Shown here piece after piece: positions 5,268 to 60,300 of a DNA stretch of 64,000 bases. The DNA is taken from positions 124,064,001 to 124,128,000 of the forward strand of contig CM059431.1 of assembly GCA_030390025.1 (NCBI GenBank), read 5' to 3'. The translations under genes were made by a program, and so were the position numbers. Below the pieces are notes generated by a model. The model was not told the DNA's origin. It did not search any database and worked only from the letters and a program-made list of their open reading frames with translations. Every line of letters starts with the position of its first letter. Within the stretch, counting starts at the first letter, position 1. This DNA comes from Squalus acanthias (taxonomy: Eukaryota).

Positions 5268-5528
5268 TGTGGCGGATCGCCACCTAAAACGGCATAAACC
5301 ACTCTTCCGTCTGTGGACAAATTTCCAGCACCTTCCCCTTTAAGGCACATTAACTTTAAGGCAGAAGGGGGCAGGGCCTCAGGTTTTACCCAGAGAATTC
5401 TGAGAATTTTTCCAGAGAATTCTGGGAGCAGCTTTCTCAGCCATTTTGTGTGCCATGCAGTGAATAAAAGTTTCTTGTTTTCCACATATGGATTCAGCCT
5501 CCATTCGTGTTTCGCGGCAGCCTCAACA
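5268..5528 (+). repeat. Gypsy 3' LTR
   Basis: Direct repeat of 2836-3097. Confidence 0.95.
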
Positions 5529-7444
5529 CCATAGCACTATTTGAAGACGAGCCAGAGAGTTCTCCCTGGTCTCCTGGACAATATTTCTCCCTTAATCAGC
5601 ACCACTAAAACAGATTATCTAGTCATATATCTCACTGTTGTTTGTGGGACCTTGCTCTCTGCAAATTGGCTGCCTTGTTTACCTACCTTTCAACAGTGAC
5701 TACACTTCAAATGTACTTAATTGGCCGTGTATAATCACCCTAGACCTCTGCGCTCCACCTATTCTGGCCTTTTGAACATCCCCGATTTTAAATGCTCCAC
5801 CATTGTCTTCAGCTGTCTAGGTCCTAAGCTCTGGAATTCCCTCCCTAAATCTCTCCAACTTTCCACTTTTCTTTCCTCCTTTAAGACGTTCCTTAAAATC
5901 TACCTCTTCGATCTGCCCTAATATCTCCTTATGTGGTTCGGTGTCAAATGTTGTTTTTTTTTATAACACTCCTGTGAAGCGCCTTGGGATGTTTTATTAC
6001 ATTAAAGGCACTATATAATTATAAGTTGTTGTTCATAGAATCATAGAAATTTATGGCACAGAAGGAGGCCATTCAGCCTAGTGTGTCTGTGCCGGCCGAA
6101 AAAGAGCTATCCCGTCTAATCCGACTTTCTGACTCTTGGTCTGTAGCCTTGTAGGTTACGGCACTTCAAGTGCATATGTTGTTGTTGTTGTTGTTGTGGT
6201 GATGCGCTTTAGGACATCCTGAGGTCATGAAAAATGTTATATAAATGCAAGTTCTTTCTTTTCTTTCTGAAGTCTGTTGTGCTTGGTTGATACTCTTAAA
6301 ATTGTTACAATATTTTGTATCGGAAGCTTTGCAACCTGGTGCCAATTAAAACAAAGGTGGGGGAATAGTTGCCAGGAGTTTCCACTCAGGATGGGAGATG
6401 GTGGTGGCTTGCTTATTGCTTAACTCTACTGGCCAATCCCTGGACAGGGAAATGGTTGGAAGTCAAGCCCTCAACTTCTTGTCCAGAGCAGGAAGAAAAG
6501 AAAAGAGAAAGACAACTTTTAGGTCAGTTGGTAAGATCTGATGAGTGAGGCAGCTAAGGGTCTAGGCCAGTTTACCATAAGAAAAGAACCAACCAGACTT
6601 AGAGTAAGCCTTGATCTGAGTCATTGTGAAAGAGTGACTCAGTCCACCTACAGGGACAGTGTGGCATTTTTAATATTTTCTTTGTTACATGGAGGGACTG
6701 AAATTAGGTTAAAGAAAGGTGAGATTTGCTGACTGTAAAATAAAGCACCTTAATGATTTGTATCTGGTTTCATCTTTCATCTCGTGTTAATCAGTCCACC
6801 TTTCAGAAGATTGGAGAAACTTAGATGAGGGCATGTGAAGATCATGATATACAGTTCATATGACAAGGGGGTCTCGTTGTTAGATAAGAGGCAGTATGGG
6901 TGAACACCTAATCATAAGGAATAGGAGGTTTGATTACAGGAGTGACTAATAATGCTGAGCCAAAGACAATATCTAGTGTAGACCTGAAATTTATATTAGG
7001 CATATTTTTCTCCGTGTATAAAATTTAAGAAATAGACAAAGGTGAATAAGCAGGCGACTGAGACCAGTCGAACATAACGAAGGATTTTTCCTTCCACTTT
7101 CACTAATACTCAGAGTCTCGCGACCATGCAAAAATGTGTCTTTGAATATTAGCTCACAAAAACAAACTTGGGCCACTAAATTTCCTGTAGGTTCCTCCAG
7201 TCTCCTTCTGTAACTCCAATGGGAGACAAGTGGAACCCATAAACTCAGCAAAGTGGTGGACAGCATTTCTGGGAGTTTTCTGGTTGCCTTGTAAGGGGTG
7301 GAACCTCCATCCACCCCTCAAAAGGCTAATGACAGCCAGGGTGTGGAGCCAATTGATAGGGACTCCCTACGCCAGAAGTTCCTGCTCCTTAGGTTTGACT
7401 GGGACTCAGCATATCAGTGGAAGCCATATTTAAAAAAAAAATTA

Positions 7445-40000: not shown

Positions 40001-41643
40001 GCATCATGAATGGCGTCACCAGACCTGCTCCATCTCATTGGGCCGGGTAACGCACTGGGTGGACTTAATAGGCTCCATTTGGGTAAATTTATTTTGTGCA
40101 GCGGGATGGAGCCAGCAGCGGGGTCGGGACCCGCCACGGACACCAGCCACACCGGACCCACTGAGATAAGGAAAATTCCGGCCTTCATCTTGGGGGAAAA
40201 AAGGAACTTCTATTTTAGAGGCAGATAAGGAAAGGAAATAGATTTTCACATTCATTATTTTTGCATTGTGTACTGATGTTAAAAAGGAAAACATTCCATT
40301 TTCATTCAAGTTTTTTTATAAAGGGGTTTTATAGGTGTACTCATTAACTAATTTTAAAATCATTGTTATATAAGTGGCATGAAATTCATTTTGGCAGTGT
40401 GACCTGCAGTCTCCAGAAAGCAATCCCAATAACACAGGAAGGATCAAGGTACTAAAGTTTAAGAGTTGTGTGTGGAAGGAGACGTGCGATGAGATGATTT
40501 ACTTCAGATTTCATACATTCGCAGTTTTTCTTTTATTTCTACAGTCTCCTTACGTTACCCAAAATAGTCAATATATTTTGCAATCTGTCATTCTTTCATT
40601 GTGCAGAAAAGGAAGTGTCAGCTTTCCAAAGGTCACGGAAGCAAACTGACTGACTCCTGTGATTTCCCCAGTGGCTGCTTGGAAAGATCCCTATGGCATA
40701 AAGGATGAGGACAGTAGTTGATTGTCCCTCGAGGTCAGGGGTTTTCAAACTTTATAGTCTAGAAAACCCTACAAATATTGAGATGATTCCAAGCATGCTC
40801 TACAAATATTGAGATGCTAAGAGGAACCAGCCTATCTTTTAAAACCTAACTTTTAGAGCTTCGGACACTGGGACATGCATCGGGAATCCAGTTATGTGTT
40901 CAATTCATGGGGCCCTGAGATTCTATCATTAATTTTAGTGGATGGAAAATAATGGGCCTGTAAATGGGGTGCATGCCTGAACTCCCAATATGCACTCCTG
41001 AAACTCTGCATCAGGAATGCTAAATAAGAAAATTTATCTAAGTGTTAGTTACCTAAAGGACAACACTGTTATCACTGCAGAAGATAAGTTTTTATTAGTA
41101 TACAGCAACAGAAATAATTGAGGACATTTTAATAGCAAAGAGCACGTGGGTTTTGGTTCAGGAGGATTGTTAAAATCAGCCAAAAATGTCAGTACGTCCA
41201 GAAGCCAGCTCCAATGCACCAACTTCTGGGTTTAACTCAGGCGTGTTTCGATGCGTGTACGTAACTCCCTCCAGACAGGCAGATTACTTCTTATGTTTAA
41301 ATGAGGCAATTTGAATGAGATTTTGACTGAGAGTTAAGTTTAACAAGACATGCACAGGTTTCCCGGGCTTCCTGAAACTCCCCATTGAAACAAAGGCGAG
41401 AAGACAGAACGGCAATTCATGGAGCTCATTAAAAGTCAGGCATACGGACAGCAATAGATATTCAGTGCTCACAGCTGCTTTCTTACCTCCCACTGGGACA
41501 GGTTTTTTTGAGAGTGCTTGTGCTGAGAGGCTAATTTGTGCACTTTAGAGGTATTGGAACTCAAGATCAGGATGGATGGTGCCATGGTTACCTGAGATTG
41601 GACCTGGGATGAGGAGTAAGATGACCATTAGCAGCAGCAACAC

Positions 41644-43366
41644 TGTAGGGAGTGGTGTGGTAGGGTCAGCTTCACCTCTGACTCAGTGAGCGGTTCGAAT
41701 AGCTCCCACGCCCCTGATTCTAGTCCTTGGACTTATTTGGGGGTTGTGAACAAAGATGCAGTAGACAACAGGTTTTGATGAAAGAGTTTTGACTTTTATT
41801 AAAGAAAAGGTAACAAACTTAAAACACACTTAATGCTTAAACACAGGTTGGGGAACACACGGTACAGGCGAGGGAGAATAACAATATACAAAAAAAAACC
41901 TTATCCCTCCCAAAATCCCACTGTCTAGCTAAGTTTTTATTTCAGGAGATCAGGGATAATGCTCACCAAACAGGGGTTTTGACAGTTCGAAATCCAGCCA
42001 GGTAAGTCGGTTGCATTTTTGGGGTACTCTCTTTGTGTCCTTTGGGGCCTGCCGTCCCCACGTGGTACCGGTCTGTGGAATCTGCGAAGGCTCCTCAGTC
42101 TGGTGGAGTCCCCTGAAGCGGTATGGCGCGGTTGTGGATGTATGAGGTGAGTACCCGATTTCTTTGTTTCTAGCTGCAGGTTTAGAGTCTTTGCATGCAA
42201 GTCTTACCCAGGGGTAAGCCAGGAGTAGTTGTAGTGTTGGCGTTTCTTCGGGTTTCCCCTGGTTGGCTGGTTTTGGTTGTGGTTGCCTGGTGGTTGGTCG
42301 TTGCGCGGGGCCTTGGACCCACGGTACTTTTGAGTGGCAGTTTACCTCGTGGAGCCCTTGGCGGCTCTGGTGGTTGATTTGTTGCATTGGAGGCCTGTCG
42401 GGGTGGTACCTCTTGGAGCTGGACCATGGGTTGAGCAATGCCGACTCGCTCCCAACCTCCAGTGACCTTTGCTAGCCCTTGCCTGGCCTTGTCTGTCTCT
42501 GCCTCCGATCTCGCCTCGGGTCTGCCTGCCTCGTGGCCTAGCTGCTTCTCTCTCCTCCTGTTCGTGTCGTGTGGCCCCTGACCCTCTATAGCTGTGAGTA
42601 ACTTGCTGTGTCTTGCTGGGGGAATAGGCCCTCAATTATACCGTTCGGGCCTATTGTGTTTTTCGCGCCAAAACCGCTTTACTAAATCAGTTTCAGTTGA
42701 GGCCTGTTTATTCTATTGTCTTAGGTTTTGGCGGGCTCGTTAAGTTTGATGACTTTTACGTTGTGTTAACTTGTCCTGATGGCTTCCGATGTCTTTCAGG
42801 GCCTTATCTACGCACCAAATCTCGCCCCTTTTGTCTTAGGTTTTTGGCGGGCTTGTAAGCTGTTCCTGTAGATATGTGGCTAATTGGGTTTTGATGGGGT
42901 GATGGGCTAGGAAAACTGTGTACTAGACGTTTTATTGTTTTCAGGCTTCCAGCATCCTGTTTGGGCCTGGGGATTTCAAAAGGGTTCTTGGTTTATTCAA
43001 TTTTGAATGTGTTTGTGATGTTTTGGATGAGGCTCTTCCTCCTTGGTTGGATTGCAGTGCAAACATCTCCCAGACAGCTTGACTGGGCCCCAATATCCAA
43101 AAGCTGTCCACTGCCTCGCCACACCTCTTCCCGCAGCCTGTCTTGTTTCTGTGACTGTAGGGTTTTTCCCAATGGCCCTTTTAAAAGGTATAGTATCATC
43201 CAAAGTCATTTTTTTCTCTTCCCTGATCCTTAAAAATGTCCAAAACTGAGGTTTTTACCTCAAATTCCTTCATTTAGGTCCCATCATTCCAAATTCGTAT
43301 AAAAATCCAAAAATCACCCCCTTTAGGGCTCTGTTCGAGTTTCTGGGGAATTTTGCGAAGCCTACA
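41644..43366 (-). mobile_element. Solo LTR (~1.72 kb), related to the ERV LTRs
   Basis: TGTAGG...CCTACA termini and TSD ACAC. Minus-strand AATAAA at ~41795. The terminus TGTAGGCTTCGCAAAATT resembles the other long LTRs. Inserted into a Harbinger transposase gene. Confidence 0.85.
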
Positions 43367-44870: not shown

Positions 44871-46574
44871 TGTAAGGGGTTTCGGCGTGCTTGTATCACA
44901 GACGATGCTGGTGCGAGGTTAGGCCTTCGTTGCCTAATGCTATTGCTTGCTCTGGTCTCCGGCCAGCCTTGTTGCAATAAGCACCTGTGAGTGGTTCGAC
45001 CCACTCGCCCTTACGGTTCTAACACTGGACTTAGGTGCGAGAGCAGTAATGCAGAGAAAAACTCAAATAGACTCGGTTGAATAGTACGAAATGGAAATCT
45101 TTATTGCATAGCGTCCAAAATCATGAAGTACATGTCATAGGCGCAAATCAACGAGAGTACAAGTATACATACATTCATAAAGCTTGGTCTATGGTAATGA
45201 AGAACGCACGGCACATCATAAAAAGGGGAACACATTATACTTTATCCTTAATAAAACCACCCTCCCCTATCAATACCTACACTACATCTAGATTTGTAGG
45301 ATCGGGAAACATGCTCACCACTCGTGATACTTCGGAGAATTTTAAAGTGAGGCACTCGGCTCGTTTTGCTGCAGTGCCTGACTGTCACGTGTTTGGAGGG
45401 GTCTCTGTACCCCACTTGTTTATCTTCGCTGCTGCGGCAAGCAGGCTGGGCTCTCCGTTGTCATGAAGAACTCGACAGAACTCGGGTCCAGCTGTAGAAC
45501 TCAAAGAAAAATCTTCCTGTACCGACACCAGTTGTCAGTAGAATTCAAAGAAGAGTCTTTGACCGGTTTGTGCAATAACCTGTAGAGTTCAAGAGGTGGG
45601 TCTTATATTTTCGGGCTCGGTCGGGGTTTACTGACCGCGGCGGCACGTGGATTCTTCTTCTTTTCTTGTCATTTCATCTTGTCTTGTTGGGCCTTCGGGT
45701 CCAGACACCGTTTACCGACTCTCGGGATGGTGCACCCGGTCACTTGCCTTTGTCGAGGCGGCTCGTTCCGATTAAGCTCCACCCAACATTCGAATAACCG
45801 TCCAGTGCGGCTAAAGTCCATAGTCAACAGAGTCCAGAGAAACACAGAAGGCTGCTCGTCCAGCAGAGCGATACCCGAGGATCAGAATAGGAGAATAAGA
45901 GTTCAGCCCGAGTCAAGAGTCAGCAGAGATAAGAGAGCGATGGACATTTGTTCACTATAGTTATAGTGCTGTGTTCCCCTATCTCCCGCCCAAATCTTAA
46001 TGTTTGTCCTTTTGTGAAATATTGGTGCTCAAAACTCCCAGCATGGGGCGATTCTTGTCTTTAACGGGTTTCGGTAGCACCTGAAACTGGCCAACTACCC
46101 GTTAATGTTTTTCTCATTGTTGAACCGGCTAGGAACCTCGCTGGCTGGGTTTTGGGGGCCCCCGAATACTTGTTTAATCACCCGAGAATGGCTCTCTCAT
46201 TGTAGAGCCATGGGGGTATTTGTGTATTGATGTGTCTGGATGGGCCTTCGATTGCACAGTACAATGGTCCTTACTTGTGCATGGAAAACGATTCCAGCAC
46301 TCATATCTTTTGCTATTGTCACAAATGCAAACAGGTTGCATCCTGTCTTTATCAGTGCTTATCGAGTATGATCCCGTCTTATATTGAAATGTTTATTCGA
46401 ACGCCATCTTGTCTGCCCACTGTAATTCTGGAAGCTTCTGCCACGATGCGCGGTGGCCATTTTACAGGCTTCTGTGTCCTTTTTAATCATGACAGCATTT
46501 CGTTTAAATAAACTGATCAAACAAATCTGCTTCTCTCTCGTTATTTTGAATCGCGATAATTGCGAAACTTTACA
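44871..46574 (-). repeat. ERV 3' LTR (1704 bp)
   Basis: TGTAA...TTACA termini; minus-strand AATAAA at ~45100; preceded on the minus strand by the purine tract CAGGAGGGAC (46575-46584). Confidence 0.92.
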
Positions 46575-46974
46575 GTCCCTCCTGTTGATGCGAATAACTC
46601 CGCTTATCGTATCAATTAAAAGTGGTGGTGAGCAAAATTATCCCGATTCTCCACATCCAAACACTCCCTTAATTTAAACTATCTATGGCCTCCATGCCGT
46701 CCTCATTTCCCAGGGAAAATTACATTGTTTAAACTTGGACAAACCGTAGGCAGCATTGCCTTTAAACTTACATTGCGTATACATCTTCCAGGTGCAACAG
46801 GCCGATGCCTCTCGCACCACCTGTATATGCATGTTTTTATTATACGAGAAAAAAAAAATAATCAAACAACCATTTTAAAAATACAAAGTTCCAAACTTAG
46901 TTACACATATTCATTACTAACAATCAATTACGAAAACACACATGGTAAAAATGGAGCGGCGTCATCCTGGCCGT

Positions 46975-49299
46975 TTACGCGGCACTTTCTTCGTTCACGC
47001 GCACGTAACGTTCTCTCCACTCCCCTGTGTTCTCCTGCTTTGTGAGGCGTTTGCCTCTTTTGCAGTGCACGACCAATAGGTACACTACAATTATAACTTG
47101 GCACACAACCAAAATGTGGGAGGCTATCCTGATCCATGACAGAACTTCAATATTGGTGAACAGATCCCACCACGGTGGGATTACTATGTCCAAAATTTCT
47201 GTCCCTATTTCTACTATTTTCTGTTCCAGCGTGGCTTTCAAAAGTTTGGTGAGGTGTTCAGGGAGAGGGGGAATGATGTATCCGAAATGCGCGACGAATC
47301 GCTGCAAGTCGGTGAAATTCTCTTTTACTGTAAGGTGAACAGTGGATGGTTCAGGGATCGGGACAATTCGCTGTTGTGCCACTTGAACTTCAGCCCTGGG
47401 TTTAAAACAGAAACTGCTGTCACTCACCGGACACCGGCTGTGGTTTCCATGCTGGTAGTGTTGCGCTGCATTGGTAACGCAATATGTTCCACCCCCTATG
47501 TATGCCACCTGCGGAGGCACATGATCTTGTGTCATTGCCTCCATGGTGCAATTCATGGGCTTGACGCCAGCCGTTCTGAACCCGCATTGTGGTGTTAAAA
47601 AGGCATTCAAGTGCTGGGGACACAGGATTAAGTGTGCTCCCCGGCCACGACAACCCGATAGGTCGGTACCTGTCATCGTTTGCTCCCAGCGGATGACGTA
47701 AGGTGGGACCACTGCGTAGCGAATGTGGGCTCCCCCCTGAATGACACCAATGTTCTCCACCCGATACACCGGGGCGGGCTTTGCCGTGTCACCCAACACC
47801 GGCATACGTAGTACTATACCCATGATGGTATGATTTGACTGTCCGCAGTCCACGGGGACTGGGTATGCCTCTGAGGCTAGCCTGAGCTGGCACGGGCTTA
47901 ATGCGTTCTGAAAAGGGTGGAGCGCCTGCAGGTGTTTGTTACTTATCCAGGACGGGACCAAACCTTGTTTTAAATCCTCCAAATTACTGCGGCCCTCGCC
48001 CAGTAACCACGCCCCGTATAGTACGCACACCTCGTTCTGCGCAGCTTGATCAGATGCGTTCCGATCTTCCCTGATCAGGCCAGTTACCGTTCTCGCATGC
48101 TTCTCCAGCTCTGCTATAATCTCCTTTAAGTGTAGTGTCATGGCCTGGTCCTCATGTAACTCAGACCCTACTACCTTGTTTCCGCTTGTGAGGATGCTTT
48201 TTAATTGTGTTTTTAAACCATTGATCTGGGTCTGCAGCTCCACGTTCTCTAGAGCGTTGACCACAGATGTTCCTGTATTAAAGGCAGTGAACATATCGTT
48301 CACAATACCCCTTCTTTGTCTCCCCACTTGACCCAAAACTTCGCGTGGTGTGGTGTACAAGCTTGTTTTGTCAATCTCAGCAAAATCAAACTCGTAGAAT
48401 TGTCTGAACATGTTTGTCAACAGGACCTGGTACAATTGTTCCGTCTCTTTGGGGTACCACTCTGTTAAACGCACCTCGGTGAGATTTAGAATCACCGAAG
48501 CCACCGCGTAATGTACCCCTTGAAATAGTATCTGGTCTGTTGGTACCAGTACCAAACCATTCCCGGGCCCCTTAGTGGTCTAAGGGCACCCTTCCTTCTG
48601 AGCCAAAACCACCGGAATCGTGGGCGGAGCCTTGCGTGGGCGCGTGATGAGTTCAGTGGCGTTTACCGGGATCAGGGAGAATGGAGCTCCGCACCCCTTG
48701 GTGCTGACATCCCACCTCATCCATTTTCCGTTATCCTGCCACTGGTGTACGAAAAATATGGATATACCTTTGGGGCAAACGTACTTCGATCCCCACATAC
48801 AAACATATATTCCCTCATCCGGTTCCCACCATTTGTCCCAACAGACTTTCAATTGTCCGTTAGTCCCCGTAATTGTCCAATGAGTATTGTTACCCAATCG
48901 CTCCCACTCGACCGAGGAATTTCTCATAGTCTTGCTTAACTTCCGTAACCACCACCATCGGCTCAATGGGACCTTCCCATTGCATGTCAAACAAATCCTT
49001 TTGCCGACGGTGACGCTGATTCTGGGTGCAATGATCCTCACTCTGGGGCACAGCAAAGAAGTCTCTTTGTAGGCAAATCCCGATGCACTGGAGTATTCCG
49101 TTGAATTCGTTCCCAGCCATCCTGGCCACCTTCCCTTGTGGAAATACGTGGCGGTCTCCTCAGCCTTTCGCTCCCCGGTCCCATCCGTCGCGATGGGGGC
49201 CGTGTCCCCGGAGCAATCAAACACAACGACATCCTTGGTGAGGCCCCGATAGGCCAATCCATATCCGATCGTTGCGAGCACTATCAGAATCCTTTCCAT
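46975..49299 (-). pseudogene. env: Envelope: signal peptide + Ig-like domain + class I fusion protein (Mononegavirales F-like); one premature TAG at 48580-48582
   Basis: ORFs 48580-49299 and 46975-48555 are in the same frame. N-terminal hydrophobic MERILIVLATIGYGLA; Ig motifs LTC..W..DEGIYVC; furin RQRR (48310-48321) followed by GIVNDMFTAFNTGTSVVNAL and heptads; Cys-rich region; TM ILVVCQVIIVVYLLVV; short basic tail. Confidence 0.85.
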
Positions 49300-49638
49300 C
49301 TTTCCTGGTTCCTGTGATCAGATAAAATGATGTAGCCAGCCTCCCAAGAGTCTCTGGCTTTTGTGAAGGGTGAGCGGGTCCCTTGACCTCGTCTCACGTA
49401 AAAAGACATGTATTCTGGATAGACTTTAACTATTCCTATCTCTAACTCCCATCATTTTACCATTTTCTTTTAAAATTAAACTACAAACTTACCAAACTTA
49501 TAAAACTATAAACTTAAACTTATAAACTTATCCTAAACTTAAAACTGTACAGTGCCGCCCGTTCCCTGGGCGGCCTACCTAAATTCTGCAAAGGCTGCCA
49601 CGAGCTTTTCCCAGTGCTGGGAGGGCACTGACCCCTTC

Positions 49639-52600
49639 CTATGATCTGCCGCAGCCTGTCGCCGCTGCGCTGGGACTGGGATCTCCCTGGGCTGCCTTGA
49701 CCTTGAACTTACGCCTGGGGGTGCACGGGGGATTTGGCCACGACTTCCTGGGCTGGGGTGTCCGACTTGACCTACGGAGGGCTACTTTGGGCAAGATTTC
49801 CAGGGCCGACGGACCAGGAACCAAGACTTCCACCGTCGCGGCCTGTGGTCCCACCACAGCCACTGGCTCCGTCTCCCCTGGCTCCGCCCCCCTGAACTCG
49901 GGATTTGCAGTTTCTGGCTCCACCCTACTTGGCCCAGTATGTGGTCCTCCACTCGCAATCCCTACCTCCCCCAAGGGCAAGACTTCCAGGTCCGACGGAC
50001 CGGGTACCGAGACTTCCACCGTCACAGCCTGTGGTCCTACCACAGCCGCTGGCTCCGTCTCCCCTGGCTCCGCCCCCCTGGGCTCGGGATCTGCAGTTTC
50101 CGATTCCACCCTGTGTGGAACTCCACTCGCAGCCCCTATCTCCCCTAAGCTTGAGTCGAGGACGAAACCTTCGTCCTCCGACCCCAGCACCTCTCCGAAC
50201 GGGTCACTACCTTGGTCGAGCTCCTCGAGCTCTTCCTCATCTGAATCCCAACTCCAAGAAAAGATCCTACACTTTTCCAGAATGTCCTCTCCCCTCAAGC
50301 AGGCTGCTTTACCGGTCTGTGTGCCCTGCGGTCCTACACGGGGCTGCGAGTCCCCACTCGCAGGTTTGGCCCCTGTGATTGGCCCCTGTGCACCCGGTTT
50401 ATACAACTTGCACTGGTTAATGTGGAACCATTTCGTGCGCCGGGGTACCTTTACGGCGTACACCATGGGACTCGCCTTATCTACAATACTGTAGGGTCCC
50501 ATATACAGTGGTTCCAAACTCCCTACTCTGGCATAGTTCCTAACCATGACCTGATCTCCGACTTCCCACTCCTGCTTCTTACGGGGTTCCAGCAACAGGC
50601 GATTGCCCTGGTGCTGTCTTCCCATGTTCCCAGCCGCCTGCTCGTAAACCTGCTTCAGGCGTTCCAAGAGGGTCTGGATAAACTTGTCCCGTTTCACCTC
50701 TTCGAGCTGTCCCTCAGTGAGCACCGGGGCTAGTACATGAGTGGGGGTTCGCATGATCCTACCAGTCATCACCTCGTACGGGGAATACCCCGTACTCTTC
50801 GACTGGCTGGCCCGGATCCCCATGAGGACTAGAGGCAGAACCCCCGCCCATTTTTGGGGCGAGTTCATAGTCTCTTTCCTCAGCTTCTCCTTGAGGGTCC
50901 GGTTCATGCGTTCAACAATCCCTGATGACTAGGGATTGTGCGCTACGTGCCACTTCCCTTCAATGCCCAAAAGCATGAGGGTGTTCTGCATCACCTGGCC
51001 GGTGAAATTACTCCCTGGTCTGACTCCACGAAACAGGGGAGTCCCCACCGCGAGAACACTTCCCGGACCAAGATCTTAGCAGTACCCAGTGCCGTAGCTG
51101 TTCTACAGGGGAAGGCTTCCACCCATTTGGAAAACACATCCACCAAGACGAGGCAGTATTTGTAGCCTCCCTGGGTGGTGGGCAGGGGCCCTATGTAATC
51201 GATCTGTATCGACTGCCATGGTCCCTCCACCCTCCTGATGTGCCCCATGTGCACTTTCCTTTTCTGGGGGTCTGGGTTGTTTGCAGCGCACACAAGACAG
51301 TTTGCGCAGAACTCACGGACCTGCTCCCTGAGTCCCGGCCACCATCCCGCCTGCTCTACCCGTTGCCAGGTAACCTCGGGCCCGGGGTGCCCTGCCCCCG
51401 GCCCCTCATGAGCCAACTCGAGGAATTCCCTCCTGTGCTGCTGCGGCACAACCCACTGTTCCTCGCGGAACAGCATGCCTTCTTTAACGGAGAGGGTTGC
51501 CGTACTGTACGGGCCCTCTACCTGCTTGCCCTCAGTAATCGTTCTGAGAACTGCTTTTAGGGCGGGATCCTGGTTCTGGACGGTCTTAAGGTCTAGGGGC
51601 AGTGCTACCCTGGTGTTCCCGGGATTCCCTTCCCTGCCTTGGATCGCTGCCACGGGTCCGGGTCCATAGGGGTCCCAGAAAATGCCATTACGGGCACCCT
51701 CCCTGGCTAGCGCATCCGCCTGCTGGTTGCCCTCCCCGCGCGGCTCTGTGGAGGAGGCAGCTTTCACCTTATGGATGAAAATCTCCCCTTCCTCCCCTAC
51801 TGCTGCTAGGATCTTTTCCAGCAAGGGCTTCACCATTAAAGGTCGCCCGTCCGTGGAGGTGTAACCACGGCGGGACCAAATGGCCAGGTATTCCGTACAC
51901 GAATTGCACGTAAACATACTGTCCGAACAAATCGTGTATGGGGTTGGGAAGATCTCTGGGTGGGTCACTACGTATGCCACCGCAGACAGCTCAGCCTGCT
52001 GCGCGCTCATGGTGCTGAGGAGTTTAATCATCAGGGCAAGGTTTGCCGCAGGGTCATAAACTCCACACCCTGTGAGTCGTTCGCCAGCGGACACTGTGCT
52101 GGAACCATCAACATAAATCTCGCGACCTGTGGGATGGATCCCGGCCCTGCAAACCTATGTTGACCTCCCACACCCCTTCTACCGAACACCGGTGGGCTGT
52201 TCCGGGGTATACCAAGTTGGCCGCAAGCCTGGGCTCGCAAATACCTTTAACTCTAAGATCCATCTGGGAAAGGAGAAGGGTCCAGCGCGCAATGCGAGCG
52301 CTGCTTACGGTCCCATCCTTAATCCTCCCATCTAGAAGCATCTTAGTTGGTGTGTGATGGGTGAGGAGAGTGATGGGAGAGAGCCCTGTGAAGATCGCTG
52401 ATCTTTTCACAGCCCAATGCGTGGCTAAAAGATGCCTTTCACAGTTGGAAAAACTCCTCTCCACATCCGTTAACACCCTGGACGAATAGACAACCGGCCT
52501 CAGCTTGCCGTGACGCTCTTGGAGCAGCACAGCGCTCAAGCTGTCTCCGCTGGCAGCTACCTCCAGGAAAAACTCCTTCCCCCCATCTATGTCCCCTAAA

Positions 52601-55600
52601 GCTGGCGCGGTCTGCAAATCCCTTTTTAACTTCTCGAATGCTGCCTGGCAACCCTCGTCCCAAGATCACTCCACTCCCTTATGGAGGAGTCGGAGCAGCG
52701 GAGCTGCTGTGGCCGCATAGTCCTCGATGAAGTCTCTACAGTAACCGGTCAGTCCCAGAAAGGACCTCACACCCATTATGGTGTTGGGAATCGGTAACTC
52801 CTGCACCGACTCCCTCCTTGCCTTATCTATGGCTCTTTCCCCAGCGCGAATGGTCAGACCCAGGAATTTTACTTCCTGCTGACCGATGCGTGCTTTCTTA
52901 GGGTTAACTTTAAAACCCTTTCTCGCTAGCAGCTCCAATAACTCGGCCAGCAGTGGTACATGCTCCTCCCTTGAGTCCGTGAACAGGAGCAAATCATCCA
53001 CGGACTGCACTATCTGATTGGGCTGACTAAACTCCTTTAAACTTCCTGCCATACACTGATGGAAAATACTGGGGCTGTTGTGGAAACCCTGTGGCAAACA
53101 GTTCCATGTGTACTGTTGTCCTTTAAAAGTAAAGGCAAACTTGTACTGGTCCTCTCGCCGCAGCGGGATTGACCAAAAAACGTTCGAGATATCCAGCACC
53201 GTGAACGTAGTCGCGGACGCTGGGATACTCCCTATTAGGTCAGCAACTGCTGCTACTGTGGGCGCGCAGGCGGGGATGTTACGGTTAAGGACTCTGTAGT
53301 CCACCGTGGCCCTCCACGAATTATCCGGCTTCCTCACCGGCCATAATGCGGAGTTCACGTGTGTGGCTATCGGCCTCAACATGCCCTGCTGCACCAAGGA
53401 GGACATTGCTGTCTCCATGTCGGGTTCTGCTTCTTTGGGGAAGTTATACTGCTTTTGGGGCCGGGTCATGGGGTCCCCGTCTACGCTGACCTCAAACCCG
53501 GTAACCCTCCCACAATCGTGCTTGTGGGTTGCAAACGCATGCATATTATCTGACACGTACGCTTGCATGTCCGTTGAGACATCCGCAACCATAAGCCCGA
53601 GGTCGTAACCTCCGGATGGCTTCATGGTACACAGGGCCCCTTTACCTTCCTTCCCTGGGATTACAACTACCTTGCCTTTCCCGCACTTGGCTGCCCAGAG
53701 ACAGTGATTCCTAAGGTCCACGAGGAACCCGTTTTCCGATAGGAGATCCGATCCGAGGATACCTCTGCCACCCCCCTCTTGCCATTTCATCAGTATGCAC
53801 TTCCATGTGGTGTGGAGTGCTCCTAAATGAATGGAGAGCTGTAGAATTCGCAAAATTATCGCGATTTCATAATAATGAGAAGGAGACATAGTTTCGTATA
53901 AACAGCTTTATTTCAGCAAAATGCTGTCAGGTTTCAAAACGGACCCAAACAGCCTGTAAAATGGCCACCATGCCTCGTGGCAGAAGGTTCTAGATTTTCA
54001 GCAGGCAGACAAGATGGCGTTTCAATAAACATTTCAGCAAGATCAGACAGGGCTCAGCATATTGAGATAAGACAAGACGAGATCGTTTTGCATTTTAACA
54101 CCCAAGCCAGGAATATAAGTGCTAGGAATCGGGTTTTTCCATGCACAAATGAGAGCTATTGTACTGGGCAATCTAGGGGCCCATCCAAAAGACATTGATA
54201 CGCAAATTCCCCACGGCTCTACGATGAGAGAGCCGTTCGCGGGTACTCACAACAAGAATCGAAGTCCCCCAAAACCCCTCCAGGGAGACTCCCAGCCGGT
54301 TCCACAATGGGAGAAATATTAACGGGTACTCAGACAGTTACAAGTATCACCGAGACCCATTAACAACAAGTACCACCCCATACAAGAAGTTTGAGCGCCA
54401 AAACATGACAAAAGATGAACATTAAAATTGGGCGGGAGATAAGGAATTACAGTACTATAACTGTAGTGTCCAAACGTCCATCTTTCTCTTATTCGCGCTC
54501 TTATTCGCTCGACTCTTATTCCTTTGACTCGCTTCTCTGATCTGTGGATTTTCCGGGAGTCAACCTTGTGGCTTGCCGCGAAGATCTGTGGAGAGCTGGT
54601 CTGCGAAGGCCGGTCAGCGGGCGCACCATCCCGGGAAGTCGGTAAACGGTGTTGGAACCGAAGGCCCGAGAGGAGATGAGATGAGATGAGATGAGAAGAG
54701 AAGAAGACGACTACATGTGCCGCCGCGGTCAGTAAACCCCGACCGCGCCCGAAAATCGATTAACCATTTCTTCGAATTCTATCGGCTACTCCACAACTGG
54801 TGTCGGTCCAGAAAGACTTTTCTTTGAATTTCACCGGCTAACTGGTGTCGGGCATAGGAAGACTCTTCTTTGAGTTTTATCAGAGTTCCGAGGTCAACAC
54901 AGATCTTCATGACAGCAGACGGTCCAGCCTGCTAGCCGGAGCAAAGCGAGTAAACAAGTGGGGTACAGAGACCCCTGATCAACACGTGGATAGTCAGGTG
55001 CTGTGGTGAAAACATCCGAGCAGAGTTTCGGAATTCTCCAAGTTATCACGAGTGGTGAGCATGAGTCTCGATCCTACAGATCTAATTTAGGACAGGTATT
55101 GATAGGGGAGGGTTTATGTTTTAAGGATAATTATAATGTGTGTCCCCTTTTACGATGTGTCGTGCGCTCCTCGTTTCCCTAAACCTAGTTGCATAAATGT
55201 ATGTAAGTTTGTACTGTTATTAATCTGTGCTTATGACATGTATTTCGTAATCTTGAATAATATGCAATAAAGATTTTCCATTTCGCACTATTCAACCGGG
55301 TCTACCTGAGTTTTTTTTTCTCTGCATTATTGCTCTCGCACCTAAGTCCAGTGTCAGAACCGTAAGGGCGAGTGGGTTGAACCACTCACAGGTGTCTAGT
55401 GCCGCCAGGCTGGCTGGAGACCAGAACAGGCAACAATGCCTAACCCCGCACTAGCACCCAGGCTAAGCACAGAGCCACGCGAAACCCCTTACAGAGCGGT
55501 ATGGAGAACGCGCCAGCCTGCTCTTTTCCCGTGAACCCCGCTAATGTGTATGGGACCTTGGTAGACAGCGGTGAGTCAAAGGGGCTATCCATATGAATCA

Positions 55601-55727
55601 CGGTGCATGAAGCTCCCGTGTCCAACAAATAACTACCCTTCTGCTTCTCTACCTCCATCTCAACCAGGGGTCTTTTCCATGCATCATAGCTGAGCGGACA
55701 CAGGTAAATGGGCTGCACGGGCTCTAG
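49639..55727 (-). pseudogene. pol: pol: protease (split by an LTR insertion), RT, RNase H-like tether, RNase H, integrase with long C-terminal extension
   Basis: PR LLDTGAS...GILGSDLL. RT WPVRKPDNSWRATVDYR, LPQGFHNSP, SVDD (degraded YVDD). Tether LEVAASGD...ERHLLA. RH YVDGSS/AELSA/SDS/ADALA. IN HHCC, IDYIGP, SDQG, VERMNRTLK, GPY. Stop at 52666; frameshifts at ~52150 and ~51015. Confidence 0.92.
53840..55493 (+). mobile_element. Solo LTR (1654 bp) of a sister family, inserted antisense into the ERV protease
   Basis: TGTAG...TTACA termini. TSD GAGC at 53836-53839 and 55494-55497. Clearly homologous to the reverse complement of 44871-46574. Removing it restores GAFSIPL-SIHLGALH. Confidence 0.92.
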
Positions 55728-56090
55728 TCATTGGATACTGGTGGACGGGGTTGTGGCATCTGTGAGGCCGGTAGCGACTGCCACCCTTCCTTGCGAAATC
55801 ATAAGGGACCGCATAGCTCCCAACATTGATTCTATCGCATCGGGATGGATAGGCACACCAGCTCCTCTCTCAGAGACAGGCGCTTGGGTTCGGGCTGCGG
55901 GAGTTTTATCCCTGGGGTCCTTCCAGGGGTTCCTACAGTTCTTACGCCAGTGACCTGTCTTCCCGCACCCGTAACAAGCACCACTGGCTTGTGGGGCGTG
56001 GTTTCCCTCCTGATGCCACTCCTTTTGAGCCGGGGCTGCGGGCCGTGCCTCATGCTACCCTCTCATCCATTACATTTCGCCTATTCACAC
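55728..56090 (-). pseudogene. gag: gag C-terminal remnant with CCHC zinc knuckle
   Basis: Manual translation gives ...QASGACYGCGKTGHWRKNCRNPWK...TTPSTSIQ* (TGA 55728-55730). Most of gag is missing. Confidence 0.85.
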
Positions 56091-56123
56091 CAGGGTCTAA
56101 AACATTACTCTCTCGCTGCCAGT

Positions 56124-56141
56124 GTCCTGCCGCGGTTGCCA
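56124..56141 (-). promoter_or_regulatory. Primer-binding site (possibly a degenerate tRNA-Ser type)
   Basis: Minus strand reads LTR end ...TTACA-GAAAA-TGGCAACCGCGGCAGGA; partial match to the TGGC....CGGCAGGA pattern of Ser tRNA 3' ends. Confidence 0.55.
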
Positions 56142-56146
56142 TTTTC

Positions 56147-56981
56147 TGTAAGGGGTTTCGGTGTGCTTGTATCGCAGACGGTGCTGGTGCGAGGTTAGGC
56201 CTTCATTGCCTAATGCTATTGCTTGCTCTGGTCTCCGGCCAGCCTTGTTGCAATAAGCACCTGTGAGTGGTTCGACCCACTCGCCCTTACGGTTCTAACA
56301 CTGGACTTAGGTGCGAGAGCAGTAATGCAGAGAAAAACTCAAATAGACCCAGCTGAATAGTACGAAATGGAAATCTTTATTGCATAGCGTCCAAAATCAT
56401 GAAGTACATGTCATAGGCGCAACTCAACGAGAGTACAAGTATACATACATTCATAAAGCTTGGTCTATGGTAATGAAGAACGCACGGCACATCGTAAAAA
56501 GGGGAACACATTATACTTTATCCTTAATAAAACCACCCTCCCCTATCAATACCTACACTACATCTAGATTTGTAGGATCGGGAAACATGCTCACCACTCG
56601 TGATACTTCGGAGAATTTTAAAGTGAGGCACTCGGCTCGTTTTGCTGCAGCGCCTGACTGTCACGTGTTTGGAGGGGTCTCTGTACCCCACTTGTTTATC
56701 TTCGCTGCTGCGGCAAGCAGGCTGGGCTCCCCGTTGTCATGAGGAACTCGACAGAACTCGGGCCCGGCTGTAGAACTCAATGAAAAGTCTTCCTGTACCG
56801 ACACCAGTTGTCGGTAGAATTCAAAGAAGAGTCTTTGTTCGTGCAATAACCTGTAGAGTTCAAGAAGTGGGGCTTATATTTTCGGGCGCGGTCGGGGTTT
56901 ACTGACCGCGGCGGCACGTGGATTCTTCTTCTTTTCTTGTCATTTCGTCTTGTCTTGTTGGGCCTTCGGGTCCAGACACCG
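56147..56981 (-). repeat. ERV 5' LTR, truncated (U3 side lost)
   Basis: Matches 44871-45711, then abuts a CR1 fragment at 56982. Confidence 0.92.
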
Positions 56982-57355: not shown

Positions 57356-60300
57356 GGGGGCAGTTTTCCCAGCCCCGAGGAGGCGGGTTTGGAGGCGGGA
57401 CAGTTGGCAAAATGGCAAAAATTGAAGGCGGGTTAGGAACCCGCCTCCAACCTGTAGTGGGTGGTGGTTTGTGTCAGCTTTACCTCTGACTTCTGAGTGG
57501 ATCGAATCGCTCCCACTCCCTTCGTTCTAGACCTTGGACTTATTTGGGGGTTGTGATACAAAGGTGCAGCAGACAGCTGAGTTTGATGAAAGAACTTCAA
57601 TCTTTATTAAAAGGTAAGACACAGATAATACCACTCTTAACACTCTAAAGGTGGGGAACACTTCGGTACAAGCGAGGGAAATGACAGTAGAACAATACTT
57701 CACCCCCCGCAACCCCACTTTCCTAGCTAAGTTAGGTTTTGAAGGACCAAGGATAATGCTCACCAATCCTTTGATAGTTGGGCTATATCGCGGTTTTGGG
57801 GTTCACTGTTTATGGCGGTTAGTGTCTGCCGTACCCCATACGCGGTAGAGGACTTCACCTGCGTCTCTGGTCAGTCTTCGTGAGTCCGCTGATGCGGTAG
57901 GATCTCGTTTTGGATCTATCTGGTAAGTACCCAATTTCCTTTGGTCAGGAGTAGGGTTTAGAGTCTTTGGGGAAAATCTTACCCAGGGGTAAGTCAGGAG
58001 TAGTTTGTAGTGTGGAAACTTTGCGGTTCTTCAGGTTTTCTTCCCTGGAGTTGGTCTTTGTTGGTCGCGGTGGCCTGCTATTACCTGGTCAGTTGGGGGT
58101 GATGTGCGGTTGTTGGTTTCGTGAGGCCTTTGGTTTCCGCGATGGCTTTAGGCCTTCTTTAGTGTGTCGGTCGATCTCGTGGTGCCATCGGTGACTTGTT
58201 GCTGCTTGTTGCTCCGGGTGACTGTGTTGGGGCCATTGTTGGAGGTCCGTCGAGGTGGTATCTTCGCGAGCTGGACTCAGGTGTGTCTGAGTGGTGAGCG
58301 ATGCCGACTCGCTTCCAGTTCGGGTTTTCTTCTTCCTGGTTCCTTCTTCTTCTGATGACCACTGGTTGCGACTGATGAGTCGACCTCTACCTTTGAACTG
58401 TTGTGTGTGTTGAACTGCTTGATCGGCCTTCAATTATACCAAATTGAAGTGGCCTTATCTACCCACCAAATCTACTCAGTTCATTGTCTGGTTTTTGGCA
58501 GGTTCGTAAATTGGTAACGACTTACTAGCGCGTTAATTGGGTTTTTAACAGTCCTTCAAACTCACCCATTGAACATGGCCTTATCTACCCACCAAATCTA
58601 CTCAATTCATTGTCTGAATTTTGGCGGGCCTGTTACCAGTAACTGCTCTGTAAGTGTCAAATGGGTTCTGGGATGGTTTGCATCCTGTCGATCTCCTTGG
58701 CTGATCACTGGTGATTGGTTTCGTGTTTTGGGTTTCTAGGCTGGACTCAGTCTTTTCTATAGCCTGGTCCTGAGTGATTTGTATCATGCAAGTTTTCTGA
58801 TGGGCCCTGTAATCAGTTTGATGGGGCCTGTTATTTTGGGTGGGACTGTCTTCTCCCAGGGTCTATTGTCAAAATGTTAATGTTTGCTGGGGCTTGAGTA
58901 GGGTCATCCCGGTTCCCCAGACAGCGCAATTAACTGCAATAACCAAAACTGCTTTTACAGAGGTTGAACCAACTTCCTTCACAGCCTTTTCTCCCTTTAC
59001 AGGCCCAGACATGTTTTAAAATGCCAAAACTTGGGTTTTGGTCTTAAATTCCTTATGTTAGCCCCAAATGCATTTTTATCACTCTGAGGTAGTTCCAAAG
59101 TCCTTTTTCCTCAGGTTGGGGATCTGCAAATTTTGGAAACCTTACAAACCTGCCTCCGCGCAATTTTGCCGGAGGCGGGTTTGATGGGTGCAATTTGGTC
59201 CTGCCTCCATCAGTCGGGAGAGGTAGTTAAGACCCTTAATTAGTAGTTAAGGGCCTCTATAATCCTATTTTGACAGGCCTTCGTTATTTTACCACATTTT
59301 CATTTTATTGTACAACCCTCCTAAATCACGCCAGCTAATCCAGTGTTGACAAGTGCGTGGCCTCCTCACAGCTGCAGCTCCACCATTAAAATGGAGCTTT
59401 CATCAGGGAGCAGTTGTAGGTGGCAGAACATTTTTGTTACAAAGGTCTTTCAGCAATTTTAGCAGGCCTACCGAATTTGGAGGTGCTGCAGCTTCGATCT
59501 CTCAACTGTGGGACATCCTTGGAAGACCCTCTCCCCGCTTGAACTGAGCGCTTCCCCAACGGAGGTATCTGCCAGCAGCATGAGAACCATTTATTTCCTT
59601 TCACCATGGACCTCAGATTCGGATGAGGAACAGCCACGGCAGCAGCAGAACCAGGCAGCTCAGCAGCAACAGCAGCAGGAGCCCCAACCTCCTGCTCACC
59701 CACCTGATGCTGCACAGGGCAGAAGGCGCCAGCGCATGGAAGCACGTCATGCAAGGAATGCACTCATCCTGGCCAGATTTGCATAGGTTCCTCATTGTGG
59801 CACATGTGCGTGGCTCCTTCTTAACACATGATAGACAATGGACATGACTCTCTGGCTTCCTTTCACTCTGACCACCAACCTGACCACGCAAATGTCGCGG
59901 AGCCCGCAATGTGGAGCTGCCTGAGCTGAAATAACAGATGCCATCACGCCAACAGTTTGCCATCACCTAATTTTAATACATTTCCACAGGGATGGCATTT
60001 CACCAATAAACAGAAACAATCACCCACTCTGCACACAGATCTGGAGGTTATATCCCTTGCCAGCTGGACCCACACAGCCTTGGTTTCTTTGGGAGGCCTC
60101 TTCCTCCCAGATGAGGAAAGAGCACCTCCCTGCTAGCTCTCGCCCCCTCAACCAGCATACCCAGCGCCTCATCCGAGAACGTTGGGGAGGCCCTTGCCTT
60201 GGAGCTGGCCATTCTTCAAGGAGATAACAGCTTGGAGGTGGTGCAGCATCGACCAAAAACCAATGGGATGAGCCAAGGCAGCAAGCAGCCCTTAAATGAA

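Follow-up and report, generated by a model that had tools for sequence, protein, structure and literature searches.

A stretch of 64,000 nucleotides from Squalus acanthias (assembly GCA_030390025.1, contig CM059431.1, positions 124,064,001 to 124,128,000; hereafter the window, numbered from its first letter) carries on its minus strand, at 56981..44871, a provirus that a preliminary description had assigned to lokiretroviruses. Our analysis did not retain this assignment. By its reverse transcriptase (RT), the element falls outside lokiretroviruses as defined and lies on the side of canonical retroviruses, in a poorly resolved zone near snakehead retrovirus (SnRV) and foamy viruses. The reading that we favour, and consider fairly probable, is that of a defective provirus from a very abundant and rather young family of endogenous retroviruses (ERVs) of a cartilaginous fish, belonging with frog and coelacanth elements to a deep-branching lineage in which an RT of the canonical side is combined with an envelope protein (Env) resembling that of lokiretroviruses. 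Sequence comparisons of Env, of the tether (an apparently inactive first RNase H domain) and of integrase (IN) suggest that it is the most lokiretrovirus-like canonical-side element among those compared. An envelope of the F type, i.e. akin to the fusion (F) proteins of paramyxo- and pneumoviruses, does not make an element a lokiretrovirus, and a tempting label is corrected here.

A single profile built from shark and frog Envs was found to link by sequence the Envs of lokiretroviruses, SnRV and foamy viruses. This linkage bears on the origin of retroviral envelopes, including the idea, put forward in passages of a published account (PMC9040795), that lokiretroviruses and canonical retroviruses gained Env independently. 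Should the deep placement of the lineage be upheld, less distance would be left between lokiretroviruses and Retroviridae.

Pol domains and their phylogenetic position

The RT domain of the provirus is intact (RVT_1 at 53337..52849, Pfam E 5.4e-34, with SVDDLL present), so that repair of pol was unneeded for any analysis. It shares an unbroken frame with the C-terminal part of the protease (GSDLL) at 53839..52669, closed by a TGA at 52668..52666. Behind this stop lies a degenerate RNase H of the Ty3/gypsy type (52665..52146), matched by RT_RNaseH_2 (1.9e-22) and RT_RNaseH (1.8e-19) and followed by a frameshift near 52146, then a second RNase H (52121..51693; Pfam RNase_H, 2e-18), in agreement with the two RNase H domains reported preliminarily. 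Ala and His occupy the two positions that we take to be those of catalytic Asp residues in active Ty3/gypsy RNase H, and the first domain was for this reason read as an inactive tether; the residues of the second domain that presumably form the DEDD catalytic set are all kept. By these residues, the first RNase H is predicted to be dead and the second live. The integrase (51449..50401) comprises an H2C2 part (51449..51273), a core and an SH3-like part (50568..50401), with Pfam matches to Integrase_H2C2 (4.1e-18), rve (1.2e-8) and SH3_Tf2-1 (1.4e-4) and no chromodomain. An intact Pol would thus be expected to contain RT, an inactivated gypsy-type RNase H as tether, an active RNase H and IN.

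Reference retroviruses for the comparison were natural sequences: gamma-type elements from IMG/VR and one contig of 10,688 bp (L011), taken as SnRV because a 16-residue peptide of its RT is identical to the SnRV row of a published alignment. Foamy viruses, lentiviruses and betaretroviruses were gathered by a primer-binding-site scan and labelled by Pfam; no named exogenous retrovirus was returned by the homologue searches. A scan of metagenome contigs with a degenerate RT motif yielded the three lokiretrovirus references (L055-L057), while viral contigs contained 0 stretches with the lokiretrovirus RT motif. These three contigs, probably host sequence from a sample associated with animals, were taken as natural lokiretroviruses on account of their RT motif, their dual RNase H and the weak matches of their env frames to PF00523 (1.2e-5 and 2.2e-3). 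The frames of L056 comprise a Gag-like protein of 659 aa, a Pol of 1,745 aa with dual RNase H and an Env of at least 568 aa.

Dataset S4 of Wang & Han 2020 (PMC7947760) displays PFG in 24 of 24 lokiretrovirus RTs at a position where canonical retroviruses have PQ(G/R); taking PFG as a lokiretrovirus mark is our reading of this published alignment and not its authors' definition. The window RT reads LPQGF, i.e. PQG, at this position (LPQGFHNSP, 53097..53071), and the lokiretrovirus RT or IN motifs were seen in none of the stored homologues. The motif had been called retrovirus-style in the preliminary description and listed among the features of a lokiretrovirus. It is indeed present, but does not work as a lokiretrovirus sign, since PQG versus PFG is what separates the two groups.

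A careful maximum-likelihood (ML) tree was built from 73 rows and 259 columns, the long or fragmentary rows P0090 and P0023 having been removed beforehand. Gypsy elements and the three natural lokiretroviruses were split from all other rows with support 100/98, the lokiretroviruses themselves forming a clade (100/100). On the other side of this branch, the window RT was joined (100/100) to a Logan Pol with which it shares 91% identity in the RT core, and this pair to nine frog and coelacanth Pols (98/90). The resulting clade was placed outside a group containing SnRV, foamy viruses, gamma-, beta- and lentiviruses and ERVs (96/89). The frog and coelacanth elements are annotated as 'NYNRIN-like'. 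A grouping with gypsy elements or with spumaviruses had been named beforehand as evidence against the earlier assignment: the RT stands apart from 18 of the 20 gypsy-labelled rows by the 100/98 branch, and foamy viruses were not joined to the window clade in the ML tree (for the test of their union, see below). The other two gypsy-labelled rows, bird proteins P0024 and P0026, fell on the retrovirus side. They have no second RNase H in their Pfam list and group with dual-RNase-H Pols of turtle and unnamed ERVs; the annotation of one reads scavenger receptor class A member 3.

In pairwise comparison, RT identity to the window was 51% for frog and coelacanth elements, 43% for SnRV, 36% for murine leukaemia virus (MLV)-type elements, 35% for foamy viruses and 33% for lokiretroviruses. 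For the tether, frog and coelacanth elements reached 46-50%, followed by lokiretroviruses (40%), MLV-type elements (30%) and SnRV (27%), with no foamy match listed. For the N-terminal part of IN the values were 45-47% for frog and coelacanth elements, 37% for lokiretroviruses, 32% for SnRV, 30-32% for foamy viruses and 30% for MLV-type elements. Among PDB sequences, the window RT scored 173 bits with foamy protease-RT, 150-154 with MLV-type RT and 107 with Ty3.

A Ty3/gypsy retrotransposon of the errantivirus-like kind, equipped with an F-type env, would account for some of the matches. A protein language-model search with Env returned proteins of the F, Baculo_F or gypsy-env kind, with Gypsy/Baculo_F env clusters on top (0.95), baculovirus F is among the structural matches of Env, and gypsy RNase H models give the tether good scores. 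This reading is nevertheless highly improbable in view of the position of RT across the 100/98 branch from 18 of 20 gypsy rows, its LPQGF motif, the two RNase H domains, of which the first is dead, and an IN with H2C2 and SH3-like parts but no chromodomain.

The envelope protein and the competing placements

The env gene (49299..46975, minus strand) has 774 codons, including one TAG at 48582..48580. Its product opens with a signal peptide, to which an N-terminal part of about 240 aa without known fold is attached. The core begins at GPGNGLVLV (48570..48544) and contains a furin site RQRR (48321..48310), a stretch resembling a fusion peptide (48309..48250) and heptad repeats; a globular part rich in cysteine and another heptad region lead to a transmembrane segment (47145..47068) and a short tail. 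Compared with homologues from a skate and a sawshark and with a natural copy of the same family (L002), the window env is 9 residues short in the membrane-proximal heptad region.

Direct sequence searches left this protein unrecognised: Env had no match in Pfam at E <= 10 and none among PDB sequences (phmmer). AlphaFold2 was run on a natural open reading frame (ORF) of 783 aa with 30 aligned homologues and gave a mean predicted local distance difference test score (pLDDT) of 59.9; residues 234-650 were mostly above 80 and residues 14-233 were unpredicted (pLDDT <50). Foldseek returned 229 matches in the PDB at E <= 1e-3, every listed row being a paramyxo- or pneumovirus F protein and the top one F of human parainfluenza virus 3 (1ztm, E 2.6e-12); identities to F proteins ranged between 7 and 15%. 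All 50 entries listed by VIA-align were likewise F proteins (Z 12.9 to 8.6, up to 375 residues aligned), for instance Langya virus F (8tvg; Z 12.6, root-mean-square deviation 5.5 A, 325 residues) and Newcastle disease virus F (Z 12.1, 5.1 A, 325 of 357), and the fold match covered model residues 245-654. Among predicted viral structures (BFVD), the best matches were arli- or lispi-like and other negative-strand virus glycoproteins, baculovirus F and paramyxovirus F0 (E to 2.2e-14). Retroviral Envs were matched there as well: those of walleye epidermal hyperplasia virus 1 (1.2e-8), walleye dermal sarcoma virus (1.7e-6) and feline foamy virus (6.6e-5). On the strength of this model, Env is predicted to be an F-type class I fusogen and not a gamma-type protein with surface (SU) and transmembrane (TM) subunits. 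The preliminary description had been right to regard it as unlike SU/TM and to expect a likeness to F proteins.

The behaviour of such a protein can be sketched from its layout. An intact Env would combine its N-terminal domain and an F-type class I fusion machine in one polypeptide; the N-terminal domain presumably binds the receptor, cleavage by furin at RQRR would free the fusion peptide, and class I refolding through heptad repeats A and B would, if the model is correct, drive fusion.

Profile comparisons were made with hhalign, the query profile being that of shark and frog Envs (alignment A2). The natural lokiretrovirus Env of L056 was matched with a probability of 98.4% (E 4.7e-15) over 341 columns of the F core, between GPGNGL and the YCVTT region (model residues 242-615). 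SnRV Env (L011) followed with 92.1% (E 6.4e-7) over 283 columns that begin with the F core and extend past heptad repeat A; the aligned residues, 519-832, begin at CP..GP.SG and include the furin site and heptad repeat A. Eleven foamy virus Envs were matched with 90.7% (E 1.2e-6) over 223 columns of the C-terminal half, and solved foamy Env structures were also recognised by sequence (8rm1, E 0.0027; 8ozh, E 0.0035). By profile, the nearest Env thus appears to be that of a natural lokiretrovirus, ahead of SnRV and foamy viruses. Since SnRV, foamy and walleye epsilonretrovirus Envs match too, the possession of an F-type Env does not single out lokiretroviruses. The matches of the predicted walleye epsilonretrovirus Envs to the model further suggest that F-type Envs are present in classified fish orthoretroviruses. 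In the literature searched, which consisted of main texts and in part of passages from them, no statement was found that Envs of SnRV-type or shark ERVs are F-like.

Several results weigh against the placement that we favour. In approximately unbiased (AU) tests, uniting the window clade with lokiretroviruses cost 20.7 units of log-likelihood and was not rejected at 5% (p 0.075); its union with SnRV cost 8.1 (p 0.27) and with foamy viruses 5.6 (p 0.25). The lokiretroviruses of the tree were three, all of the teleost type, and the tree was built without epsilonretroviruses, ERV-L, fish foamy-like ERVs, published shark ERVs and Odin. A quick IN tree, with no NYNRIN included and the family's own IN unplaced, joined the frog and coelacanth elements to lokiretrovirus IN with a Shimodaira-Hasegawa-like approximate likelihood ratio (SH-aLRT) support of 82. 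As regards Env, PF00523 gave no match at E <= 10 in Pfam, and read-through, furin cleavage, fusion and receptor binding are deduced from sequence and from a model of mean pLDDT 59.9.

The AU result and the IN tree lend some weight to the view that the element represents a divergent branch of lokiretroviruses, or their sister group, in chondrichthyans and amphibians, the RT motif of which would have converged on the canonical form or kept it. The nearest Env profile is that of a natural lokiretrovirus, and the tether and IN are nearer to lokiretroviruses than to SnRV. We assume that CGIN1 and NYNRIN are the same gene. Lokiretrovirus IN has been reported to group with CGIN1 (PMC7947760), and the nearest Pols here are the ones annotated NYNRIN-like. 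The RT argues the other way, by the 100/98 branch that lies between, by the likelihood loss when the two are forced together, by PQG where 24 of 24 lokiretroviruses have PFG, by an identity of 33% and by the absence of the lokiretrovirus motifs from every stored homologue. Six chondrichthyan genomes were moreover screened by Wang & Han 2020 (PMC7947760, supplement) and no lokiretrovirus was reported from them, although env relatives of the window family were found here in two of these six species. Membership among lokiretroviruses, as proposed preliminarily, was given up on these grounds; in the broader form of a divergent branch, the view appears unlikely.

Foamy-like ancestry was also weighed, the element being perhaps the same as the reported endogenous foamy virus of cartilaginous fishes, or ERV-Spuma. 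To our knowledge, foamy viruses have neither a CCHC knuckle in Gag nor an in-frame Pro-Pol behind a gag stop; the present family has a CCHC knuckle and its Pro-Pol lies in the gag frame behind a stop. Neither the window ORFs nor the Gag of a natural copy matched Spuma_A9PTase, Gag_spuma or Foamy_virus_ENV, whereas the reference foamy viruses matched all three. In the ML tree foamy viruses lie inside the 96/89 clade that leaves the window clade out, and their RT identity, 35%, is below that of SnRV. Wang, Chen and Cui reportedly described endogenous foamy viruses of cartilaginous fishes (J Virol, 2023). A foamy affinity is suggested by the top PDB sequence score of the window RT, obtained with foamy protease-RT (173 bits versus 150-154 for MLV-type RT), by the AU test (p 0.25) and by the match of the Env profile to foamy Env (8rm1 and 8ozh), a protein described as F-like in passages of PMC11468914; an element named 'ERV-Spuma.0-Sca' is also mentioned for a catshark in part of PMC10699275. 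On balance we hold a foamy-like origin to be unlikely.

The split between RT, which is nearer to SnRV, and Env, tether and IN, which are nearer to lokiretroviruses, could finally be the mark of recombination: a lokiretrovirus would have supplied env, and perhaps IN, to a retrovirus of the SnRV type that captured it. Repeated replacement of RNase H and IN during retrovirus evolution was argued by Wang & Han 2020 (PMC7947760). However, the lokiretrovirus-like tether adjoins RT in one ORF, a state that slower decay of an ancestral condition fits better than a swap. SnRV Env is itself homologous over 283 columns, so that no capture is needed to account for an F-type Env, and frogs hold relatives of both pol and env. 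We therefore see recombination as quite unlikely.

With the canonical-side, deep-branching placement retained, a bolder form of it can be put forward tentatively, as a possibility that we do not expect to hold: the shark, frog and coelacanth elements would represent an undescribed major lineage between lokiretroviruses and all canonical retroviruses, with Env and IN of the lokiretrovirus type, a little-decayed tether and a canonical RT. If this were true, F-type Env, seen in lokiretroviruses and in SnRV-like, foamy and epsilon lineages, would be ancestral to all retroviruses; gamma-type Env would have replaced it later, and a living intermediate would join lokiretroviruses to Retroviridae. The family may, on the other hand, already be included in published sets of shark, SnRV-like or foamy-like ERVs.

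Anatomy of the provirus, its family and hosts

Read along the minus strand from 56981 to 44871, the provirus has the order long terminal repeat (LTR), primer-binding site (PBS), gag with a CCHC knuckle, protease, RT, tether, RNase H, IN, env, polypurine tract (PPT) and LTR, which is the order and the interval first described. A direct-repeat search and self-BLAST paired 44871-45710 with 56147-56981 (840 aligned columns, 96.8% identity, E = 0). The 3' LTR (46574..44871) is complete, with 1,704 bp between TGT and ACA, and a PPT-like purine run, AGGAGGGAC, abuts its upstream side at 46583..46575. Only the final 835 bp of about 1.7 kb remain of the 5' LTR (56981..56147, ending in ...CCCCTTACA); its U3-side half is gone and was not found elsewhere in the window. 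An LTR length of about 1.7 kb, as given preliminarily, therefore applies to the 3' copy and no longer to the 5' one; other copies in the genome have the same 1.7-kb LTR at their 5' end. Because of this truncation, a target-site duplication of the provirus was unreadable at its flanks.

Over 835 sites, the two LTRs are distinguished by 18 transitions and 4 transversions, with 5 further gap columns, i.e. by a Kimura two-parameter (K2P) distance of 0.027, which bears out the divergence of about 3% counted earlier by hand. This distance corresponds to an insertion age of 6, 13 or 61 million years at yearly rates of 2.2e-9, 1e-9 or 2.2e-10 substitutions at each site, respectively, the last rate being the one assumed for elephant shark by Han in the portion of PMC4422223 consulted. 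Whether the insertion is called recent hinges on the substitution rate of the host, as the ages span 6-61 million years across the rates assumed.

A PBS-like 18-mer, TGGCAACCGCGGCAGGAC, lies 5 nt past the LTR at 56141..56124; other genome copies show TGGCGACC... at this site, and SnRV and a subfamily copy have different 18-mers which likewise start with TGGCGA. The primer tRNA could not be matched to the 18-mer. The gag ATG (56142..56140) overlaps this PBS-like sequence and leaves almost no untranslated leader; for a retrovirus this is uncommon, unless translation in reality starts at a Met farther downstream.

What is left of gag (56142..55728) consists of the first ~30 codons and, behind a deletion of about 1.4 kb, a nucleocapsid part with one CCHC knuckle (55976..55935; Pfam zf-CCHC, E 3.5e-4). 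When a natural Gag was compared with the window (tblastn), residues 1-78 and 548-641 were aligned and the rest was unmatched; the gap is also evident against other copies. A fuller gag was found in a genome copy whose Gag of about 600 aa combines an extended coiled coil with a PPSY late-domain motif and a single CCHC knuckle, the knuckle being the only part recognised by Pfam and by PDB sequence search. The gag terminator is a TGA at 55730..55728 with the protease downstream in the same frame. UGA-CUAG is a context that favours read-through. TGA CTA G was present in three of the four copies compared, the fourth being deleted at that spot, and Pro-Pol may, judging from this layout, be synthesised by read-through of the in-frame gag TGA.

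The N-terminal part of the protease (55727..55494) includes the active site DTGA (55622..55611) and matches Pfam RVP at 3.2e-5. It is split from the C-terminal part by a solo LTR of a related family, inserted on the plus strand at 53840..55493 (1,654 bp, TGT...ACA), exactly the interval that had been proposed for excision. A 4-bp duplication, GAGC, borders this solo LTR on either side (53836-53839 and 55494-55497), and the solo LTR is oriented opposite to the provirus: by self-BLAST, 53833-55433 is an inverted copy of 46582..44943 (76-79% identity). Lesions of pol comprise the stops at 52668..52666 and 50931..50929, the latter a TAG within IN, and frameshifts near 52146 and, also within IN, at 51012-51045. 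The IN frame is prolonged by an acidic, proline-rich C-terminal extension of about 250 codons (50400..49639) holding two tandem copies of 138 bp (49789-49926 and 49975-50112, 89% identical), after which some 340 bp of non-coding DNA lead to the env ATG. With its truncated 5' LTR, deleted gag, solo LTR in the protease and stops and frameshifts in pol and env, this copy is replication-dead. The 'few stops' mentioned preliminarily were too mild a description of a copy that has lost about 1.4 kb of gag and has two stops and two frameshifts in pol and one stop in env. An intact member would be organised in the style of a simple orthoretrovirus, with 1.7-kb LTRs and a PBS directly behind the LTR.

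Open env frames are frequent in the source genome. A protein search of the 3.7-Gb assembly with an env frame of 534 aa gave 11,609 first-look candidates, figures that count matches and not copies. The 81 candidates that were scored were all 94-100% identical, and 46 of them were stop-free, in open frames of at least 789 aa; the natural copy L002 has an env ORF of 783 aa. The family is very abundant, with many copies in which env is open, and this abundance of open frames would reflect recent spread. The host genome appears as a suitable place to study both the action of an F-type Env in a retrovirus and its possible co-option by a host.

Named env homologues were found in the sharks Pristiophorus, Mustelus, Chiloscyllium, Heterodontus and Scyliorhinus and, outside sharks, in the skate Rhinoraja (78-79% identical) and, more distantly, in the frogs Pelodytes and Xenopus, a distribution that makes a chondrichthyan host likely. 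Sequencing runs (X6-X11) of at least five other coded organisms contained 25-35% of the sampled env 31-mers, and the top runs, from organism A, presumably the species of the window itself, 50%. Near-identical family members occur under several species labels. None of the runs listed as containing these words is marked as RNA. In contigs of three runs for which an RNA origin is a guess, all 30 bins were covered and no leader-to-env joint was present among the joints listed, a result that weighs neither way. One genome copy (L059) is a subfamily member, its LTR being 90-93% identical and its PBS 18-mer (6544-6561) different; its 5' LTR is split by about 3.1 kb (about 3259-6386) holding an open frame of 784 aa of unknown nature.

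The surrounding region is rich in repeats. Direct repeats at 41638-42237 and 57448-58013 (75-79% identical, offset by about 15.8 kb) bracket the provirus; they could belong to another interspersed repeat, or else be the aged LTRs of an element that the provirus entered. Further pairs, of 72-97% identity and some of them inverted, were found at 34007-35285/62622-63941, 18306-18718/19924-20340, 2836-3097/5268-5528, 11556-12119/36423-36984 and 30460-31203/59247-59965.

Comparison with known systems

Lokiretroviruses (PMC7947760 and contigs L055-L057) share with the window family the LTR-gag-pol-env layout, a well-preserved tether and the dual RNase H, the last being common to lokiretroviruses and canonical retroviruses. 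Their Env is likewise of the F type, with furin site, fusion peptide, heptad repeats and transmembrane segment, and gave the best profile match of the Env core; their IN (37%) and tether (40%) identities are the highest among the named groups. They differ by an RT with PFG, 33% identical to that of the window and situated across the 100/98 branch. The published Env consensus of lokiretroviruses starts the F core straight after the signal peptide, whereas the window family has an additional N-terminal domain of about 240 aa, and natural lokiretrovirus Envs weakly match PF00523 (1.2e-5, 2.2e-3) while the window Env does not. No report of lokiretroviruses from cartilaginous fishes was encountered in the literature searched, which covered articles in part and, for supplements, that of Wang & Han 2020.

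SnRV (L011) resembles the window family in its RT (43% identical, LPQGFH.SP motif), in the same set of Pol Pfam domains, in gag and pol lying in one frame with a stop between them, and in an Env whose homology sets in with the F core and takes in the furin site and heptad repeat A, a large N-terminal domain, longer in SnRV, preceding it. The differences concern the tether (27%) and IN (32%), the accessory ORFs, none of which was seen in the window provirus, and the position of the window clade outside SnRV and other canonical retroviruses (96/89), although their union had an AU p of 0.27. According to the parts consulted of the respective papers, every major group of vertebrates has SnRV-related ERVs of clade 'Huo' (Xu et al. 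2018, PMC6001957), and the elephant shark has SnRV-related ERVs in CmiERV lineage I (Han 2015, PMC4422223), so that SnRV-like ERVs are already known in a chondrichthyan. The published shark and clade Huo sequences are outside the present comparison, in which the SnRV relation is drawn from L011.

With foamy viruses the window family has in common long LTRs, a long fusion subunit with an F-like fold (known for foamy Env from passages of PMC11468914), an Env whose C-terminal half can be aligned, and the top PDB sequence score of the RT. It is set apart from them by its CCHC Gag and in-frame gag-pro-pol, by the lack of any foamy-specific Pfam family in the window ORFs or natural Gag, and by the ML tree, in which the two were not joined. 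The likeness to walleye epsilonretroviruses comes from structure comparison alone, their predicted Envs matching the window-family model (E 1.2e-8 and 1.7e-6). Metaviridae have a single active RNase H and an RT within gypsy clades, in contrast to the dual RNase H of the window and an RT set apart by the 100/98 branch from 18 of the 20 gypsy-labelled rows.

The F proteins of Paramyxoviridae and Pneumoviridae share with the window Env the predicted fold and the order of an F2-like start, furin site, fusion peptide, heptad repeat A, globular domains, heptad repeat B and transmembrane segment. Identity is limited to 7-15%, PF00523 is not matched, and the window Env is encoded by a reverse-transcribing element. 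In place of the separate attachment protein of these viruses, the window Env would appear to carry an N-terminal domain of its own.

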